Made by a program: the position numbers and the translations under genes
In this document: positions 3,045 through 44,856 of the stretch, piece by piece
How positions within the stretch are numbered: the stretch's first letter is position 1
Layout: every line of letters starts with the position of its first letter
Source of the DNA: an uncultured Thermoleophilia bacterium
Lineage (GTDB): Bacteria; Actinomycetota; Thermoleophilia; UBA2241
NCBI GenBank assembly: GCA_963696935.1
Contig: CAVOMB010000101.1
Span: forward strand, 13,020-77,019
Direction of reading: 5' to 3'
Length of the DNA: 64,000 nt
The notes under the pieces: generated by a model
The model's database searches: none
Seen by the model: the letters and a program-made list of their open reading frames with translations, nothing else
What the model was told of the DNA's origin: nothing

Positions 3045-4175
3045 TCAGGAGGAGCGGATCTCCCGCGACAGGAGGCCGACCAGGCCGGACGCGGCCACGA
3101 TCACGCCGGCGACGACGAAGAGCAGGCGCACGTCCACCACGCCGGCCAGGGCGCCGCCGACCAGCACGGAGACGGCGTAGGTACCCTGCGTGAGCATGAA
3201 CCGTGTGCTGAACACGCGCCCGCGCATGCCCTCGGGCACCGTCTGCTGCAAGAACGTGTCCACCGCGATCAGGACCAGGGCGTTGGCCAGGCCGAACAGC
3301 GCGAACGGGACTGCCGCCACCCAGACCGAGTCGGTGAGCGCGACCAGCGCCAGGCAGACTCCCATCGCCAGGAGCCCGCCGGTCATGACCCGGCCCTTGC
3401 GTACGCGCGCGGCCAGGGCGACCATTGCCAGCGAGCCTACCAGGAAGCCGACGCTGCTCGCGGCTTCCAAGGCGCCGAACGCCCCTGCGCCGCGCCCCAG
3501 CACGTCCACAGCGAAGAGGAAGGTGAGCGGGTAGACCGCGCCCATGCCGGCCACGGAGACCACGATCATCGTCGTGTTGGCGCGCAGGCCGCGGTCACGT
3601 CGCAGGAAGGTGAATCCATCCTTGAGTTCCTTCCTGAAGGCCCCTGCGGCCTTCGCCGCGGCGTCGCGCACCGGCGCCCGGTAGCGCATGAGCGCGAGCG
3701 CCACGGCCGAGACGACGAACGTGGCGGCGTCGAGCCGGAACGCCGCCGTGGTGCTCACCGCGGCGAGGAGCAGGCCGGCGAGCGCCCAGCCCAGGATCTC
3801 CGTGAGGTTCTCACCCGTGGAGAGCAGCGAGTTGGCGCGCATCAGCCGGTCGCCCGGCACGATCTCGGGCACGATCGCGAGCTTGGCGGGGTCGAAGAAC
3901 ACGCCCAGGCTCGCGATGACGAAGGCCAGCACGAACACAGAGGGCAGGGAGCGTGTAGCGAGGAAGGGCACTGCGAGCACGAGCACCGCACGCAGCACGT
4001 CCATGGCGACCATGAGCCGGCGCTTGTCGACCCGGTCGACGATGACGCCGGAGAACGCCCCGAAGATCACCCAAGGGAGGGTGTAGAGGGCGAAGACGGC
4101 GCCTGTGCCCAGCTCGGACCCCGTTGCCTTGTATACCAACCACGGGAACGCGAGCGCGGCGAGCCGGTCGCCCAT
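3045..4175 (-). CDS. MFS transporter (efflux type)
   Basis: 376-aa polytopic ORF. N-terminus ..VIVDRVDKRRLMVAMDVLRA.. is typical of MFS drug/siderophore exporters. Confidence 0.8.
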   Translation of the reverse strand: MGDRLAALAFPWLVYKATGSELGTGAVFALYTLPWVIFGAFSGVIVDRVDKRRLMVAMDVLRAVLVLAVPFLATRSLPSVFVLAFVIASLGVFFDPAKLAIVPEIVPGDRLMRANSLLSTGENLTEILGWALAGLLLAAVSTTAAFRLDAATFVVSAVALALMRYRAPVRDAAAKAAGAFRKELKDGFTFLRRDRGLRANTTMIVVSVAGMGAVYPLTFLFAVDVLGRGAGAFGALEAASSVGFLVGSLAMVALAARVRKGRVMTGGLLAMGVCLALVALTDSVWVAAVPFALFGLANALVLIAVDTFLQQTVPEGMRGRVFSTRFMLTQGTYAVSVLVGGALAGVVDVRLLFVVAGVIVAASGLVGLLSREIRSS

Positions 4176-4570
4176 CTGCGAGACGAACTGCCCGGTCCAC
4201 AGCAGGCCGAAGGTGGCGTTGCGATGGAGAGGTACCGTTTGGAACTCCGCGGATGCGGCTTTGGCCTCTATCGTCTTCCCCCCTGGAGTGCGACGGCGAC
4301 CGAGTGATGATCGGGGCGGTGCGCCTGCGGCGACCGCCCCGAAAGGTTACATCAAGAGGGTGACGACTTCTCCGGCCGTACGGCGGCTTCCTGCTCCTCC
4401 CACAATCCGTTGTCCAGTTTGGCAACTCCGCGCTCGCCAGCTTTCACATTCTGTCCTACTCGCGAGGGTGGCCAAGGCCAGAGTGGCATCCGTAGAGTCG
4501 CAGCACACAATCGTCAACCACAAATTATCGGCATGTGGTTGAAGAACCTTTAGCGATTCGGAGGGGACTA

Positions 4571-4672
4571 ATGGGCACGCTCATGGGCAAGATGCACCTC
4601 GACACGATGGGCAAGATGCACCTCGACACGATGGGCAAGATGCACCTCGACACGATGGGCAAGATGCACTGA
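4571..4672 (+). CDS. Small ORF encoding a 33-aa repeat peptide MGTL(MGKMHLDT)x3MGKMH
   Basis: ATG at 4571 preceded by GGAGGGG at 4561-4567. The ORF is built almost entirely from a perfect 24-bp tandem repeat and ends ..KMH-TGAC. It lies 170 bp upstream and on the same strand as the HD-GYP gene. Not in the ORF track because it is too short. Confidence 0.3.
   Translation: MGTLMGKMHLDTMGKMHLDTMGKMHLDTMGKMH
4583..4669 (+). repeat. Perfect 24-bp tandem repeat ATGGGCAAGATGCACCTCGACACG, 3.6 copies
   Basis: Three exact copies at 4583-4606, 4607-4630 and 4631-4654, plus a 15-bp partial copy at 4655-4669. Confidence 0.9.
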
Positions 4673-4701
4673 CGTCTTCCGACTGAGTACGAGGTCATCT
4701 G

Positions 4702-4782
4702 ATGAGCAAGAAAATCGAGAAGACGCTAGCATCCCTGTTGTTCGCCCTCGTGACGAGCGGCGGCAACAGCAAGATGCACTGA
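4702..4782 (+). CDS. Small ORF encoding the 26-aa peptide MSKKIEKTLASLLFALVTSGGNSKMH
   Basis: ATG at 4702 with GAGGTC upstream. It has a hydrophobic core and ends with the same KMH-stop and identical 15-nt 3' end (GCAAGATGCACTGAC) as the neighbouring repeat ORF. Confidence 0.3.
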   Translation: MSKKIEKTLASLLFALVTSGGNSKMH

Positions 4783-4844
4783 CTGCTAAAGCAACTTCAG
4801 CCCGGTGCCGATAGCGGGGGCACGAGAAGCCCCTATGAGGTCCA

Positions 4845-6281
4845 GTGACGACACCTGGTGAGCGAAACTATGGCGTCCTGACGGCAGTCTTGGCGGCGTG
4901 CGCCGGGCTGTTCGTCACGTACGCCGCCGTCTTCCCCGGCCCCATCCCCGTCTCGACGTCGGTCATGCGCGACGCGCTCGTGTTAGCGGTCCTGGCGATC
5001 ATTGCGGACGAGATGTCCGTGGAGGTCTCCGACCGCGTCACTCTGAATGCGGGCAACCTGCCTGTTCTCTTGGCGATCATGTTCACGGGCCGACTGCCAG
5101 CCATCGGCGTGGCGGTCGTCGTAGGACTCTGGGGCGCGTGGCGTGAGAGCTCTCGCGCGGTCGTCGTCTACAACACGGCGAACTTCATCATCGCCGTGTT
5201 CCTGTCATCGCTGGTGTTCGATGCGCTCATCGAGCCGCTAGGCGTACAGCTCCATCAGATCACCGTCGGCCTGCTGCTGGCCGCGGCGGCTGCCGCAGTC
5301 GTCTTCGAAGCCACCAACCTTGCTCTCCTCAGTCTTGGGATGCGAGTGAAGTACCAGCGTCAGTTCCGCGCGTTCTGGCGAGAAGAGATGCTGCCGTTCC
5401 TGCGGTCGCTCGGAGTCTTGCTGGCGCTAGGCTTGGCGATCGCTGCTCTGTACGCCGCCGCCGGCATCATCGCCGTCACGCTCCTCTTCATCCCGCTGTT
5501 CGCCGCCCAGTACATGTTCAAGCTTCTGGTGCGCGAGAAGGAGCATGTGGCGCGCCAGACCGAACTCAGTGACCAGTACCTCGAGATGAACATCGGCCTG
5601 GCAGCGGCCATGGTCGTGCTCTTGGACAGCAAGGACGAGTACACTGCGCAGCACTCCGCGGCGGTGGCGATGTACTGCCGCGACATGGCGACAGCGCTTC
5701 AGCTGCCGGAAGAAGAAGCGGAGGCGCTCCACTTCGCCGGCCTGTTGCACGACCTCGGCAAGGTCGGTGTGCCGGACGCGGTCCTGCGCAAGACCAAGAC
5801 CCTCGACGAGGAGGAGTGGGAGTTCATCCGCCAGCATCCCGAGAAGGGGGCGGAGGTGCTCTCTCACCTCGCCGCCTACCAGGAGGTCGCGGACATCGTG
5901 CGCTTCCACCACGAGCGCCTCGACGGGAGCGGCTACCCCTTGGGCATCCGTGGGGACGCGATCCCGGAGCTCAGCAAGGTGCTGGCGGTCGCGGACAGCT
6001 ACCACGCGATGACCTCGGACCGGCCCTACCGCGGCGCCCGCAGTTCGTTCGAGGCCCTGAAGGAGCTTCGTCTCATGTCCGGCACGACGCTCGAGCCGAC
6101 CTATGTGGAGATCCTGGCCAAGGTCCTGCGCGACAAGGACCTCGCCTACCGCGACGGGAGTTCCACGGACTTCATGGGCGAGTACGAGCGCGGTCGCATC
6201 AACCTGCGCCTCCGCGGCCACGCCCTCGCCGACGTCAGCGGGCTCTCCTCGACGCAGCAGGAAGACCCAGCGGCAGGCTGA
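4845..6281 (+). CDS. Membrane-anchored HD-GYP domain c-di-GMP phosphodiesterase
   Basis: 478 aa. The N-terminal ~230 aa carry 6-7 hydrophobic helices. The C-terminal part has HD (..LLHDLGK..) and GYP (..HHERLDGSGYP..) motifs. GTG start, so the exact start is uncertain. Confidence 0.85.
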   Translation: MTTPGERNYGVLTAVLAACAGLFVTYAAVFPGPIPVSTSVMRDALVLAVLAIIADEMSVEVSDRVTLNAGNLPVLLAIMFTGRLPAIGVAVVVGLWGAWRESSRAVVVYNTANFIIAVFLSSLVFDALIEPLGVQLHQITVGLLLAAAAAAVVFEATNLALLSLGMRVKYQRQFRAFWREEMLPFLRSLGVLLALGLAIAALYAAAGIIAVTLLFIPLFAAQYMFKLLVREKEHVARQTELSDQYLEMNIGLAAAMVVLLDSKDEYTAQHSAAVAMYCRDMATALQLPEEEAEALHFAGLLHDLGKVGVPDAVLRKTKTLDEEEWEFIRQHPEKGAEVLSHLAAYQEVADIVRFHHERLDGSGYPLGIRGDAIPELSKVLAVADSYHAMTSDRPYRGARSSFEALKELRLMSGTTLEPTYVEILAKVLRDKDLAYRDGSSTDFMGEYERGRINLRLRGHALADVSGLSSTQQEDPAAG

Positions 6282-18152: not shown

Positions 18153-19625
18153 TCAGCCGCCTTTGCCCGGCTTGTCGGGCTTGTTCGAACCGCCGCCGTT
18201 CCCGTTCCCGCCGCCGCCCGAGTTGCCGCCGGCGTTGGAGTTGCCGCCGCCCGAGTTGCCGCCGGCGTTGGAGTTGCCGCCGCCCGAGTTGCCGCCGGCG
18301 TTGGAGTTGCCGCCGCCCGAGTTGCCGCCGGCGTTGGAGTTGCCGCCGCCCGAGTTGCCGCCGCCGCCCGAGTTCCCGCCGTTCTTCTGCGCCTTCGCCG
18401 CAGCCTTCTCCGCCTTCGCGGCGGCCCGTGCGGCCGCCTTGTCCGCCTTCGCTGCGGCCCTCGCGTCCGCCGCGGCGCTCTTGTCGCCCTTCAGCTTGTT
18501 GTGCGCGGCCTTCTTCGCGGCGGCGCGGGCCTTTGCCGCCGCACCCTTGGAGGCGCCCGGCGCCTGCGCCGAGTTCCCTGGCCCTGCGGCGGCGCTCTGG
18601 CCGCCGGAGAGCGGCGACTCCCCCGTGCCGGCGTGCGTCTGTGCCGCGTGTGCCGCGTGCGGCGGCTTTCGGTGGTGCAACCCGGGCAGCGCGCCGGTCT
18701 CGTAGGCGGCGGCTGCACCGCCGCCTGTCGCGATCGTCGCGGCTATGACCACGGCTGCGATCTTGGCGGTAGCCACGCCCCCGACCTTCGCCAGCAGGCC
18801 TCCGGCGGCCAGCGACATGCTGCTCGAGACTGCTCCGGCTCCGCCTGCGGCCGCGCCGCCGGCCGTGCCCGCCGCGGCGCCCGAGACCGCCGTGCCGGCG
18901 CCTGAGGCCGCGACCCCAGCCCCTCCGGCGCCCGCGGCTCCGAACGGGAAGCCGCCCTGCAGCGTCGCCGGGAGCGGCACATCGTGCAGGAAGACGCCCA
19001 AGCCGATGCCCGCCGCGCTCCACTTCTCCACGTTGCGCGAACCGGGCTGGCCCTGGGTGAGCTGGAGGTACTTGACGCGAAACGAGTCCCTCGCACGGAA
19101 GAGCAGTGTCTCGGTGGCGTTGCGGGAGATACTCAGGATCTCGGCGATCTCGTCGTGGCGCAGGCCGTGGATGTCTTTGAGCACGAGGACGGTGCGGTGT
19201 CGCTCGGAGAGGGCCGCCAGCGTCTGTTCCACGCATCGGCCCATCTCCGCCTGCTCGAACCCGTCCACACGAACGGCCTGGGAGTCGGCGCCCAGGTCGT
19301 CGATGTCGCGGTGCAACCTGCGCGTGCGCAGGTGGTCGTAGCTGGCGTTAACGGCTACGCGGTAGAGCCAGGGAGTGAGATGGAGGTCCGCGACAGACGA
19401 CTCAGGCAGCTTCCGGAAGGCCTTGATGAAGACCTCCTGGGTGATGTCGCAGGCGTCCTCAGGCGACTGCACGATACGCAGTGTGAGGTTGTAGATCTGC
19501 CCGCGGTAGAGCTCGTAGAGTTGCTCGAACGCCTCACGGCTGCCGGCGCGCAGGCCATTGACCAGCGCGGCGTCGCCGGCTGCCCCTGGACCCACGGCGT
19601 ATCTGTCTGAGACGAGTGTCGCCAT
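18153..19625 (-). CDS. ECF-type sigma-70 factor fused to a C-terminal transmembrane segment and a Lys/Ala- and Gly/Asn/Ser-rich low-complexity domain
   Basis: Sigma region 2 (..DITQEVFIKAFRKL..) and region 4 (..LSERHRTVLVLKDIHGLRHDEIAEILSISRNATETLLFRARD..) occupy the first ~190 aa. Then comes a Gly/Ala linker, TM ..AKIAAVVIAATIATGG.., a KAAA-rich segment and (NAGGNSGGGNS)n repeats. Confidence 0.8.
   Translation of the reverse strand: MATLVSDRYAVGPGAAGDAALVNGLRAGSREAFEQLYELYRGQIYNLTLRIVQSPEDACDITQEVFIKAFRKLPESSVADLHLTPWLYRVAVNASYDHLRTRRLHRDIDDLGADSQAVRVDGFEQAEMGRCVEQTLAALSERHRTVLVLKDIHGLRHDEIAEILSISRNATETLLFRARDSFRVKYLQLTQGQPGSRNVEKWSAAGIGLGVFLHDVPLPATLQGGFPFGAAGAGGAGVAASGAGTAVSGAAAGTAGGAAAGGAGAVSSSMSLAAGGLLAKVGGVATAKIAAVVIAATIATGGGAAAAYETGALPGLHHRKPPHAAHAAQTHAGTGESPLSGGQSAAAGPGNSAQAPGASKGAAAKARAAAKKAAHNKLKGDKSAAADARAAAKADKAAARAAAKAEKAAAKAQKNGGNSGGGGNSGGGNSNAGGNSGGGNSNAGGNSGGGNSNAGGNSGGGNSNAGGNSGGGGNGNGGGSNKPDKPGKGG
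18220..18351 (-). repeat. 33-bp tandem repeat (4 perfect copies) encoding GGNSNAGGNSG repeats inside the ECF sigma C-terminal domain
   Basis: +strand unit CGAGTTGCCGCCGGCGTTGGAGTTGCCGCCGCC repeated at 18220, 18253, 18286 and 18319. Degenerate copies flank it. Confidence 0.85.
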
Positions 19626-21431: not shown

Positions 21432-22421
21432 TCAGGACGTCAGCGCCCACGCGAGCACGGCGATTGCGTTGAAGAGCGCGTGCATCGTGATGTTGGTCCA
21501 CAGGGACCCGGTGCGGTGATACGCCCAGGCGAGGATGAACCCCAGCGCTGCCAGCGGCAGGAACACATCCAGCTGCAGGTGGGCTCCGCCGAAGACCGCC
21601 GCCGAGATCAGGGCTCCCCAGACCCATCCGAGCGAGTTGGAGAGCCCGCGGAAGAGGAACCCGCGGAAGACGCTCTCCTCGAAGACCGGCGCCATGACGA
21701 CGGCGACCAGGACGAACATGACCGCGCCCACGGCGCTGTGCGGGAACTCGCTGACGATGGCCTGCTCATGAGGGTGCACGAGGGCGTCGTGGGCGACGCT
21801 GAACGCGTACACGGCGGCCAGGCCGGCCGGAACGACCCAGAAGTAGGCGCTGGTCGGGCGCCGGAACCCCCACAGCACGAGCGTCCGGCCGGCGTTGCGC
21901 AGCGAGAAGAGCCAGGCGGCGAACACCTGCCAGCCGTATAGCACCAGCGAGAAAAGGGCGAGCATGATCGCACTGGCGGCAGTGACCTTGTCCGTGCTCG
22001 TGGACGTGCCGCCGGAGAACAGCGACGCCAGCTCCAGCAACGCCTGCGGCGCCGCGCCGGCGACGAGTCCGGCCACCGCGGCCGGCCAGCGCCAGTCCGC
22101 CTTGGGGAGATAGAACGGGTCGCCCGGAGACGCCGCCTTCGACGGCCGCGCGTCGGCCTCTGACCGCGCCCCGGCCTCCGGCTGCCCACCGGCCTCTGGG
22201 AGGCCGAGTCCCGGCACCTCCGGCGGCGGGACCTGCCGCCGGCCATCCTTCGGCCGCTCGGGCGGCGGCGCTCCCTTGTTTGTATCGTCCTGTGCGTCGA
22301 TGGCTTGGGTCCTTCGGTTCGTTCTCAGCCTACCGGGAAGCATGTAGGAATGGCATTCCCGGGAGGTCGCTCGAGCCACGCGAGTGGCGTGGCGCGCCGC
22401 GACGCACGTGGCCGGCGGCAC
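21432..22421 (-). CDS. CPBP family intramembrane glutamic endopeptidase (CAAX protease / Abi domain)
   Basis: Polytopic. Motifs ..EESVFRGFLF.., ..FGGAHL.. and ..HALFN.. The N-terminal ~90 aa are Pro/Gly-rich and the start is uncertain. Confidence 0.8.
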   Translation of the reverse strand: MPPATCVAARHATRVARATSRECHSYMLPGRLRTNRRTQAIDAQDDTNKGAPPPERPKDGRRQVPPPEVPGLGLPEAGGQPEAGARSEADARPSKAASPGDPFYLPKADWRWPAAVAGLVAGAAPQALLELASLFSGGTSTSTDKVTAASAIMLALFSLVLYGWQVFAAWLFSLRNAGRTLVLWGFRRPTSAYFWVVPAGLAAVYAFSVAHDALVHPHEQAIVSEFPHSAVGAVMFVLVAVVMAPVFEESVFRGFLFRGLSNSLGWVWGALISAAVFGGAHLQLDVFLPLAALGFILAWAYHRTGSLWTNITMHALFNAIAVLAWALTS

Positions 22422-39966: not shown

Positions 39967-41037
39967 GTGAGCGCCGACGAGATCAAGAACACTCCTGACG
40001 TCGAGAACACTCCTGACGTCGAGGCCGCCGCCGAGCCCGAGAAGACCGAGGCCGAGGCTGTCGAGACCACCGAGGCTGACGCCGCTCCGGAGGCCGAGAA
40101 GAAGCCGGCCGCCAAGAAGGCCGGAGCCGCCAAGGCCGAGGGCGACGAGGCCAAGGGCGAGAAGAAGGCCCCTGCCAAGAAGCCGGCCGCTAAGAAGGCC
40201 ACCGCCAAGGCCGCCGACGAGAAGGCAGCCAAGCCGGCCGCCAAGAAGCCGGCCGCTAAGAAGCCGGCCGCCAAGAAGGCCGCTCCGGCCAAGGCCGAGA
40301 AGGCCGCGCCCGAGAAGGCCGCCAAGCCGGCCGACAAGGCCGCGGCCGCAGAGCCCAAGGCCGAGCGTTCGCCTAAGCAGAAGGCTCCGGTCAAGCCTGT
40401 GGCGGAGGCCCGCAGGGGCGCCGCCGGCACGGCCACCTTCATCGACGCATCCGGCAAGGAACTCGAGGCCCGCAAGCTGGCCGACGCCCGTTTCGGTGTC
40501 GCCGCGGACGTCAACACGCTGCACCTGGTCGTGCGTGCCGAGCAGGCCGCGCGCCGCTCCGGCACCGCCTCCACCAAGACGCGTGGCGAGGTCAGCGGCT
40601 CCACCGCCAAGCTGTACCGCCAGAAGGGCACGGGCCGCGCCCGCGCCGGCAGTGTCAAGTCGCCGATCCGTACTGGCGGCGGCATCACCTTCGGCCCGCA
40701 TCCGCGCGGCTTCGATATCAAGATCAACAAGAAGGTCATCCGCAAGGCGCTCTCCATGGCGCTGAGCGACCGGGCCGCCAACGGCCGCGTGTTCGTGGCC
40801 GCAGGCCTCGAGCTCGCCGAGCCCAGCACGCACACCGTGGAGCAGTTCCTCGTGAACCTCGACTGCGCCGCGCCGGTGCTCTTCGTCATGCATGACGAGC
40901 CGGTGCTGCTCAAGTCGGTCCGCAACCTCCCGTACGCCGAGGCGTCGGAGGTGGCCGCCCTGTCCACCGAGCAGGTGCTCCGTGCCCGCTCGCTGGTCCT
41001 CACCGAGAAGGCGTTCGCCGCCCTGAACGAGGCGTGA
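39967..41037 (+). CDS. rplD: 50S ribosomal protein L4 with a ~150-aa N-terminal Lys/Ala/Pro-rich (histone H1-like) extension
   Basis: 356 aa. The N-terminal ..[44 protein letters not shown].. is followed by the canonical L4 core ..[45 protein letters not shown].. Confidence 0.9.
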
Positions 41038-44398: not shown

Positions 44399-44856
44399 TG
44401 GCTACAGCGAAGAAGACAGACAGCGGCAAGCCCGCTCCCAAGCAGTCGGCGGCGCGCAAGCCCGCCGCCAAGAAGGCGGCGGCCAAGAAGGCCGCCCCCG
44501 CCAAGAAGTCGGCCGCCAAGAAGGCCGTCGCTCCCGAGGTCAAGGCCGTCAAGAAGGTCTCGGCCGCGCGCAGCAAGGCCAAGGCCGAGCGCAAGGCTCC
44601 TGAGAAGGTGCCCGGGCGCAAAGAGCGCCGTGGCGTCGTCGTGAGTGACGCCATGGACAAGACGATCGTGGTGCGCATCGACGTGGCGCAGAAGCACGAG
44701 CGGTACGGCAAGGTCGTCCGCCGCTCGAGCAAGCTGCACGCCCACGACGAGCACAACGCGGCCGGCGTCGGCGACCTCGTGCGTGTCGTCGAGACCCGTC
44801 CGCTGAGCGCGTCCAAGCACTGGCGCCTCCTCGAGGTCCTCGAGAAAGCCAAGTAA
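44398..44856 (+). CDS. rpsQ: 30S ribosomal protein S17 with a ~65-aa N-terminal Lys/Ala-rich extension
   Basis: [42 protein letters not shown].. followed by the S17 core ..[68 protein letters not shown].. Confidence 0.9.

Follow-up and report, generated by a model that had tools for sequence, protein, structure and literature searches.

Two very short open reading frames (ORFs), sORF1 and sORF2, lie directly upstream of a gene for a membrane-bound HD-GYP phosphodiesterase of cyclic di-GMP (c-di-GMP) in a 64-kb stretch of contig CAVOMB010000101.1 from an uncultured Thermoleophilia bacterium, the whole of which is referred to here as the window. Both are real, conserved and under coding constraint, and both end in [K/R]-Phi-His-stop, where Phi is M, I, V or L. 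With a probability of about 0.4, judged from sequence, we propose that sORF2 encodes a hitherto undescribed small membrane peptide, which acts together with the MASE9 sensor domain of the phosphodiesterase, and that sORF1, as a translated leader, has the same C-terminal tag.

The features named in the original prediction, which had been made from the DNA letters alone, were confirmed and are listed with others in Table 1. The coordinates and translations of both sORFs match exactly, and Tandem Repeats Finder (TRF) returned the same 3.6 perfect copies of a 24-bp unit within sORF1. The claimed ribosome-binding site of each frame was located as a Shine-Dalgarno (SD) sequence, and the identical 15-nt 3' end, GCAAGATGCACTGAC, is indeed common to sORF1 and sORF2. 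The array is the only perfect one of such size in the window, and its unit length, being a multiple of 3, keeps the frame when the copy number changes. Across all six frames of the 64 kb, [KR][MILV]H-stop stands at the end of just two open frames, the adjacent sORF1 and sORF2. The low-GC character of the region was confirmed as a dip (0.54-0.55 over positions 4400-4800; 0.63-0.74 in the flanks), although the measured value is near 54% rather than the 50% first given. The membrane HD-GYP gene reported downstream is likewise present, with Pfam matches to HD_5 (E value 4.5e-40), HD (E value 5.6e-21) and MASE9 (PF20972; E value 1.5e-05). The last of these covers residues 46-222 and is marginal (25.4 bits; cut-off 24.3 bits), and many HD-GYP homologues have no precomputed MASE9 match.

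Table 1. Features of the sORF1-sORF2-HD-GYP region and of the divergent neighbouring gene (positions in the window)
Feature	Position	Strand	Remarks
Divergent MFS_3 (DHA3-type) transporter gene	3045-4175	-	Pfam MFS_1, MFS_3; context only
Operator-like imperfect inverted repeat GTTGTCCAGTTTGGCAAC	4409-4426	.	between divergent MFS gene and sORF promoter; conserved as GTGTTGTCCAnnnTGGCAAC in nearly all related loci
-10-like hexamer TAGAGT	4493-4498	+	candidate promoter of the sORF1-sORF2-HD-GYP transcript; putative start
5' leader: GTCAACC, 6 nt, TATCGGCA	4513-4541	+	includes element a (4526-4533)
Element b, CTTTAG	4548-4553	+	just 5' of sORF1 SD; CTT(T/G)AG conserved 14-15 nt after a
sORF1 SD, GGAGGGG (strong)	4560-4566	+	4 nt before ATG; GGAGG or GGGGG kept in related loci
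sORF1	4571-4672	+	33 codons, MGTL(MGKMHLDT)3MGKMH; four K-M-H motifs; copy-number-variable mini-ORF
Perfect 24-bp tandem repeat, unit ATGGGCAAGATGCACCTCGACACG x 3.6	4583-4669	.	TRF period 24, 100% matches, score 174
sORF2 SD, GAGG	4691-4694	+	7 nt before ATG; GACTGAGG conserved in KMH clade
sORF2	4702-4782	+	26 codons, MSKKIEKTLASLLFALVTSGGNSKMH; tail S-K-M-H
Element b', CTAAAG	4786-4791	+	reverse complement of b; CT(A/C)AAG conserved past sORF2 stop
Element a', TGCCGATA	4806-4813	+	reverse complement of a; TGCCGATAG conserved in most loci
Small GC hairpin GGGGGC...GCCCC	4816-4833	+	between a' and HD-GYP SD; predicted in local folds of window and relatives
MASE9-HD-GYP membrane c-di-GMP phosphodiesterase gene	4845-6281	+	GTG start; SD GAGG (4837-4840)

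A genome scan with the HD-GYP protein of the window retrieved 57 loci (labelled L001 onwards, as are the further related loci), all from metagenome-assembled genomes of Thermoleophilia or Actinomycetota. In nearly all of them two, sometimes three, co-directional mini-ORFs ending in K-Phi-H-stop stand directly upstream of the HD-GYP gene, which starts with GTG or TTG. About 50 species-level genomes have the conserved pair, as do additional contigs from metagenomes and ENA. Additional loci were collected by look-ups via the neighbouring major facilitator superfamily (MFS) protein and by a metagenome scan with the conserved non-coding leader motif alone. The latter returned 120 stretches, about two thirds of which were one or two chance matches recurring across assemblies, mainly human-gut contigs. 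The 44-nt string CGTCAACCTGTGTCATCGGCAATGTACTTGCATCTTCACTTGAG (L058, L060, L063, L067 and about 50 more loci, many of them human-gut contigs) was rejected as such a chance match to the leader pattern, having neither sORF2 nor K-Phi-H. Detection of sORF2 with the last three residues left unconstrained found it, together with the same leader, in 81 Thermoleophilia genome or metagenome loci encoding 43 distinct peptides. All 81 end in [K/R][MIVL]H-stop (48 KMH, 18 KIH, 13 KVH, 1 RMH and 1 KLH), and in each of the 60 loci for which 2.3 kb or more of sequence is available the HD-GYP motif HHE[RK]xDGxGYP follows downstream. The check suggested at the outset, a search of related genomes for short KMH-ending ORFs upstream of HD-GYP genes, thus gave a positive result.

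An exhaustive HMMER search with a 31-residue translation of the window containing sORF2 against 1.84 billion representative proteins yielded four matches, all of them the same orthologue called from upstream starts, and revealed no other genomic context for the peptide. The exact sORF2 peptide exists as a JGI/IMG gene call without a name on 3 contigs, and an exact look-up of the HD-GYP protein of the window gave no record. The HD-GYP homologues retrieved were all at least about 60% identical, and two further protein searches listed only matches of at least 62%; L057, at first sight a distant relative with 43% identity, was rejected, its assembly being full of frameshifts. The sORF module is documented for one family-level clade only.

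The pattern of variation in sORF2 is that of a coding sequence. Across 49 distinct nucleotide versions the entropy at codon positions 1, 2 and 3 is 0.67, 0.46 and 1.15, respectively, with a rough pN/pS of 0.39. In 26 diverse sequences M1, A15, G21 and H26 never vary, and G20 and K24 hardly do. The peptide consists of a basic N-terminus, a hydrophobic stretch of 14-17 residues, a GG hinge, one or two small residues and the K-Phi-H tail. For crossing a membrane, a hydrophobic stretch of this length is short. Small residues at positions i, i+4 and i+8 (S11, A15 and S/A19) form an S-x3-A-x3-S/A face on the predicted helix. In the last five codons (positions 4765-4782; all loci) the third-position entropy is 0.33-0.39, as against 1.0-1.9 elsewhere, and Ser is always encoded by AGC, which hints at an extra nucleotide-level constraint on the 3' end. 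The codon-position patterns of sORF2 suggest that it is translated, and its product seems to be a functional small protein, belonging to a new family, rather than a disposable leader. Neither Pfam nor NCBIfam matched the sORF1 or sORF2 peptide to a family; the comparison of sORF2 with TIGR04429 (Phr_nterm) is sub-threshold (14.1 bits; cut-off 25 bits; E = 0.05). Rfam gave no match at gathering score in the window and only chance-level matches (E >= 0.59) over positions 4200-4900. The absence of a Pfam, NCBIfam or Rfam family agrees with the initial statement that no characterised system corresponds to this arrangement.

The sORF1 orthologues are far more variable, with 5-33 residues and 1-4 [K/R]-Phi-H motifs. 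Minimal forms have 5-9 codons (MTKLH, MIKIH, MRKGAKIH, MRFSAKMH), while others contain 2-4 in-frame units of 5-9 residues (SPIKVH, SFKIH, GKMHIKFG, YAKLHITAD), and in some genomes the entire mini-ORF has been duplicated together with its SD. Unit sequence and unit length (15-27 nt) vary between genomes; the reading frame and K-Phi-H persist. Nucleotide differences between units number 73, 74 and 190 at codon positions 1, 2 and 3, respectively. The same four K-M-H motifs recur in the closest relative, L001, where the three LDTCGKMH units show nothing but synonymous differences among themselves; the repeat copies are therefore old and selected, with a recent homogenisation in the window alone. 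The recent expansion read from the perfect repeat in the original prediction applies to this genome only and not to the copies as such. Most lineages have 5-35 nt between the sORF1 stop and the sORF2 start, and a few have as many as about 60 nt; several lack an SD for sORF2, which in these lineages begins 5-16 nt past the sORF1 stop.

In nine loci (L004, L012, L018, L038, L042, L050, L052, L054 and L057) the sORF1 frame is broken by indels of 1-2 nt, and the K-M-H codons of these broken copies vary at third positions only. We read the broken frames as assembly errors. Frameshifts also interrupt the MFS, HD-GYP, BioY or BirA gene in 23 of the 57 loci, and many large genes in L031-L057. They seem to be about 10-fold enriched in sORF1.

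Upstream of sORF1 several conserved elements precede or form a putative leader. The operator-like 18-mer (GTTGTCCAnnnTGGCAAC) is the only site of its kind in the window. It is followed about 32 nt downstream (approximately 4440-4458) by a second, weaker copy containing TTGTCC, which is conserved across relatives; the 18-mers are duplicated again in L023, L032 and L044. A conserved hexamer (TAGAGT, TAGCAT or TAGGGT, depending on the locus) precedes GTCAACC by 14-16 nt, and a simple sigma-70 scan reported no full promoter. Within the leader, GTCAAC and TCGGC are invariant in all 41 distinct versions, as the block GTCAAC-N9-TCGGC at positions 4513-4532. A local hairpin, CAACCACA/TGTGGTTG, would hold element a in its loop; it forms in only 57% of cells in one register, is only partly conserved and has some covariation at its inner pairs, and the core of a is mostly unpaired in local folds. 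The composite of a and b occurs in the window only at 4527(+) and 4812(-), and the downstream elements, CTAAAG and TGCCGATA, recur with the same 14-nt spacing as the upstream pair. In the KMH clade, a' overlaps the 5' arm of a predicted stem that pairs with the SD and start region of the HD-GYP gene. The 3' variants GGUACC, GGUGCC and GGCACC are all compatible with the consensus stem GUGCC/GGUAC, which is weaker in the window itself. Leader and stem could together fit an anti-sequestor/sequestor switch, on evidence that is thin, and the inverted a/b and b'/a' pairs may alternatively be DNA-level operator sites. No terminator was found on the + strand.

In the proposed mechanism the promoter, the structured leader, sORF1, sORF2 and the MASE9-HD-GYP gene would form a three-cistron unit. 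The product of sORF2, a single hydrophobic helix of 25-26 residues, would insert in the membrane and work with the MASE9 domain encoded downstream, much as other small proteins modulate membrane sensors. MASE9, encoded next, is the most economical partner for it. Very short length, a strong SD, rapid turnover and tight spacing before sORF2 are the reasons why sORF1 reads as a regulatory upstream ORF. This fast-evolving mini-ORF would set the amount of sORF2 as a translational leader and, through the leader structure, that of HD-GYP as well. The shared [K/R]-Phi-His-stop would be a recognition element, and its reader would have to see the C-termini of both peptides. This reader may be the terminating ribosome, the only one certain to see both, a Lon-type protease that reads C-ends, or the HD-GYP protein itself. 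Because the sORFs are tied to HD-GYP in every related locus examined, a leader- or signalling-peptide module feeding the phosphodiesterase, as first suggested, was the right class of idea.

Leader peptides of small size are a known kind, as are small proteins that partner sensors in the membrane; the new features are one C-terminal tripeptide used twice, a selected tandem amplification, and the link to MASE9-HD-GYP. To our knowledge, MASE-type membrane domains are among the commonest inputs of c-di-GMP enzymes, yet a signal is known for hardly any of them. The conserved 26-residue peptide directly before MASE9-HD-GYP is a concrete, testable candidate partner. The locus could bring to light either a regulatory peptide linked to termination or a recognition tag at the C-terminus, in both cases a new one. 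A bolder form of the proposal, which we regard as unlikely, takes [K/R]-Phi-His-stop as a new, reusable nascent-peptide or C-terminal signal occurring twice in one leader, sORF2 as the first peptide partner or ligand of a MASE-type domain, and sORF1 as a 'dose dial' tunable by copy number. If this were true, the three together would tie c-di-GMP turnover in Thermoleophilia to the state of translation termination, or of a protease that reads C-ends. As the locus also shows, functional genes as short as 5-26 codons are overlooked systematically in uncultured Actinomycetota.

Several observations weigh against the proposed mechanism. The hydrophobic stretch of sORF2 equally fits a signal peptide. 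By the positive-inside rule the tail of sORF2 would be extracytoplasmic, yet sORF1 has no export signal, which makes a common reader of both tails awkward unless it is the ribosome. In a crude test of co-variation, no column of the HD-GYP alignment tracked the identity of Phi. In one lineage (L059, L178-L181 and L183) sORF1 reads MTKSPFKL[L/G/S](SPFKL[L/G/S]), as in MTKSPFKLLSPFKLL, and its terminal His is lost, so the shared tag is not obligatory for sORF1. There, in L059 and L178-L183, sORF2 retains K-[M/I]-H, BioY is missing from the locus and the TGCCGATA element is altered; a' is not conserved in L178-L183. The evidence for RNA structure is also weak: a helix between b and b' was rejected because the variable middle base does not covary (about 11 compatible and 17 incompatible loci), the covariation term of the SD/start stem is approximately 0, and a and a' barely vary, the core never and with the few flanking changes uncompensated. 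Finally, the MFS, BioY and BirA neighbours are syntenic alongside HD-GYP (MFS in all loci with upstream sequence), and given this synteny the HD-GYP linkage may partly reflect shared ancestry in one family.

MgrB with PhoQ, SafA with PhoQ, KdpF with KdpABC and AcrZ with AcrB are likewise peptides of fewer than 50 residues with one helix, encoded beside or co-regulated with a polytopic membrane sensor or pump. The small-residue face of sORF2 suggests helix-helix packing, as for such modulators. sORF2 shares no sequence similarity with any of the four, however, and differs in that its partner would be MASE9-HD-GYP and in its invariant K-Phi-His tail, which is repeated in a second, upstream mini-ORF. 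It has been suggested by Galperin and colleagues that MASE9 binds a ligand within the membrane (bioRxiv 10.1101/2021.11.05.467447).

Of the other explanations, the one that survives best, although it is somewhat unlikely, is that both mini-ORFs are purely cis-acting leader peptides. With a stop codon occupying the A site, a nascent chain ending in [K/R]-Phi-His would slow or block termination, perhaps when a small molecule or antibiotic is sensed, and the paused ribosome would gate the next cistron (sORF1 to sORF2 to HD-GYP) by occlusion, reinitiation or remodelling of the leader RNA. The ribosome would see both C-termini in the same context. TnaC, SecM, ErmCL/ErmDL, the CmlA leader and the eukaryotic MAGDIS upstream ORF are also very short translated ORFs in the 5' leader of a regulated gene, with conservation at the C-terminal residues beside the stop and the downstream ribosome-binding site in a predicted stem. 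Here, too, short ORFs with their own SD lie on the strand of the regulated gene, with translation suggested by codon-position patterns, and the SD and start of HD-GYP are predicted to be sequestered. sORF1 shrinks to 5 codons (MTKLH, MIKIH) and typically has 8-9 up to the first K-Phi-H, which is the length range of drug-dependent arrest leaders. Its SD is strong and conserved, and the stop-to-start gaps are short. The divergent neighbouring transporter is of the DHA3 'macrolide-efflux-like' type, JGI naming homologues of the proximal MFS protein (3045-4175) 'DHA3 family macrolide efflux protein-like'. Such a neighbour would be thematically interesting if the mini-ORFs sense ribosome-targeting compounds. 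In contrast to the known leaders, two successive ORFs here have the same terminal tripeptide, and no convincing covariation was found for alternative RNA structures. The motif is not among the known arrest motifs; we know of no arrest at K-Phi-H. Moreover, sORF2 is conserved over its full length, with a hydrophobic helix and an invariant Ala that a pure leader would not need. Internal K-Phi-H copies precede sense codons and not stops, the stop codons themselves vary (UGA, UAG, UAA), the distance from the sORF2 stop to the downstream elements ranges from 13 to 76 nt, and the sORF1 His is lost in one lineage.

Alternatively, sORF2 might be an exported signal precursor of the SHP, PrgQ or Phr type, from which a mature C-terminal peptide of 4-6 residues (S-S-K-Phi-H) would be released, possibly with the help of the MFS exporter, and sensed by MASE9 for autocrine or quorum control of c-di-GMP. 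We give this little weight. The pheromone pro-peptides of Gram-positive bacteria (SHP/Rgg, PrgQ, Phr/Rap) similarly measure about 22-45 residues, combine a basic N-terminus and a hydrophobic core with an active C-terminal oligopeptide, and have a receptor gene beside them. The length of SHP and PrgQ precursors is comparable to that of sORF2. The n-region MSKKIEK, the h-region TLASLLFALV and a c-region of small residues with an invariant G at -1 would suit such a precursor, as would the weak Phr_nterm match (E = 0.05) and the divergent MFS_3 transporter conserved alongside. That match is below its cut-off, however, and the MFS synteny is indistinguishable from general synteny. Among the neighbours there is no RRNPP-type receptor, PptAB-like exporter or processing protease, nor any Eep or Opp context; the candidate receptor would instead be the membrane domain MASE9, and the host belongs to an actinobacterial class. 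sORF1 has the same tail without an export signal, and the invariant Ala with the i/i+4 small-residue face of sORF2 points to helix packing and not to a disposable signal peptide.

Smaller still is the likelihood that the C-terminal [K/R]-Phi-His serves as a protease tag of the kind known as the Lon 'H-degron'. The two peptides would then be Lon substrates or LarA-like modulators, with sORF1 as a decoy or activator that tunes the stability of sORF2. The Lon degron has been described as x-[L/I]-[L/I/V]-H with an invariant terminal His, the H-to-D change abolishing binding (PMC11986505). LarA binds and activates Lon via its last five residues, the pentapeptide being sufficient and the terminal His required (PMC10665427). 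In sORF2 the terminal His is likewise invariant (81/81) and always preceded by a hydrophobic residue. The antepenultimate residue, on the other hand, is always K or R and not hydrophobic, and the carriers are peptides of 5-33 residues rather than folded proteins. In the topology predicted from the charge distribution the tail of sORF2 would be extracellular, the internal copies of K-Phi-H do not stand at a C-terminus, and the published data are from Proteobacteria.

That the peptides are precursors of ribosomally synthesized and post-translationally modified peptides (RiPPs), with sORF1 as a multi-core precursor, or Cu/Ni-binding peptides, is very improbable. Cyanobactin PatE, fungal UstA and yeast alpha-factor also consist of in-frame tandem units (5-9 residues) with peptide-level selection and a copy number that varies between lineages. 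The tandem units of sORF1 seem to be under such selection, His is invariant, and an MFS exporter adjoins. In contrast to those precursors, sORF1 has no processing sites, leader or maturase genes, and single-unit forms of 5-9 residues, carrying one His, are common. No RiPP maturase (radical SAM, YcaO, ThiF/MccB, P450 or lanthionine enzyme) was detected by Pfam within about 10 kb on either side. The metal-binding Met/His motif proposed earlier does not fit the relatives, in which I, V or L takes the place of Met in many sORF1 units and in 32 of the 81 sORF2 copies (48 KMH and 1 RMH retain it) and C, G, A or S that of the other Met of the unit, His being conserved. An N-terminal X-X-His motif would require hypothetical processing.

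It is barely credible that the repeats and flanking inverted elements act as DNA (iterons, operators or an invertible segment) or are assembly artefacts, with the ORFs incidental. The pairs a-N14-b and b'-N14-a' are inverted around the sORFs with conserved spacing and without RNA-type covariation, and the nine broken sORF1 frames would fit this explanation. Against it, variation is concentrated at third codon positions in both sORFs, frameshifts are common in the large genes of the same assemblies, too, and the locus has been assembled independently many times. The iteron idea of the original prediction was dropped since the repeat-unit DNA differs between genomes, whereas the frame and K-Phi-H are kept, and since the differences between units fall mostly at third codon positions; an invertible segment was rejected on the constant orientation of the sORFs in all loci, with no recombinase nearby.

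The neighbouring genes are, in addition to HD-GYP, two MFS transporters, BioY, BirA, a PucR-type regulator and a CofH/MqnC-type gene. The two MFS genes (1581-2939 and 3045-4175, both on the - strand) are in tandem and divergent from the sORF operon. Further away, an intramembrane protease similar to CPBP/Rce1 (PF02517) is encoded at 21432-22421 (-), approximately 17 kb from the sORFs. Members of this family process small peptides, or confer immunity to them, elsewhere in bacteria. A sigma factor of the extracytoplasmic function (ECF) type, encoded at 18153-19625 (-), has N-terminal Sigma70_r2/r4 domains and a long C-terminal extension. The latter includes a 33-bp tandem repeat (18210-18381; 5.2 copies, 96% matches) encoding a Gly/Asn/Ser-rich repeat. 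A block of ORFs on one strand, at approximately 22800-53700 (+), resembles an rpoB/rpoC and ribosomal-protein/secY region by size and order only. Several of its ORFs contain Ala/Lys-rich tandem repeats of the AAGAAGGCC type, for example at 40092-40342 and 44426-44527.

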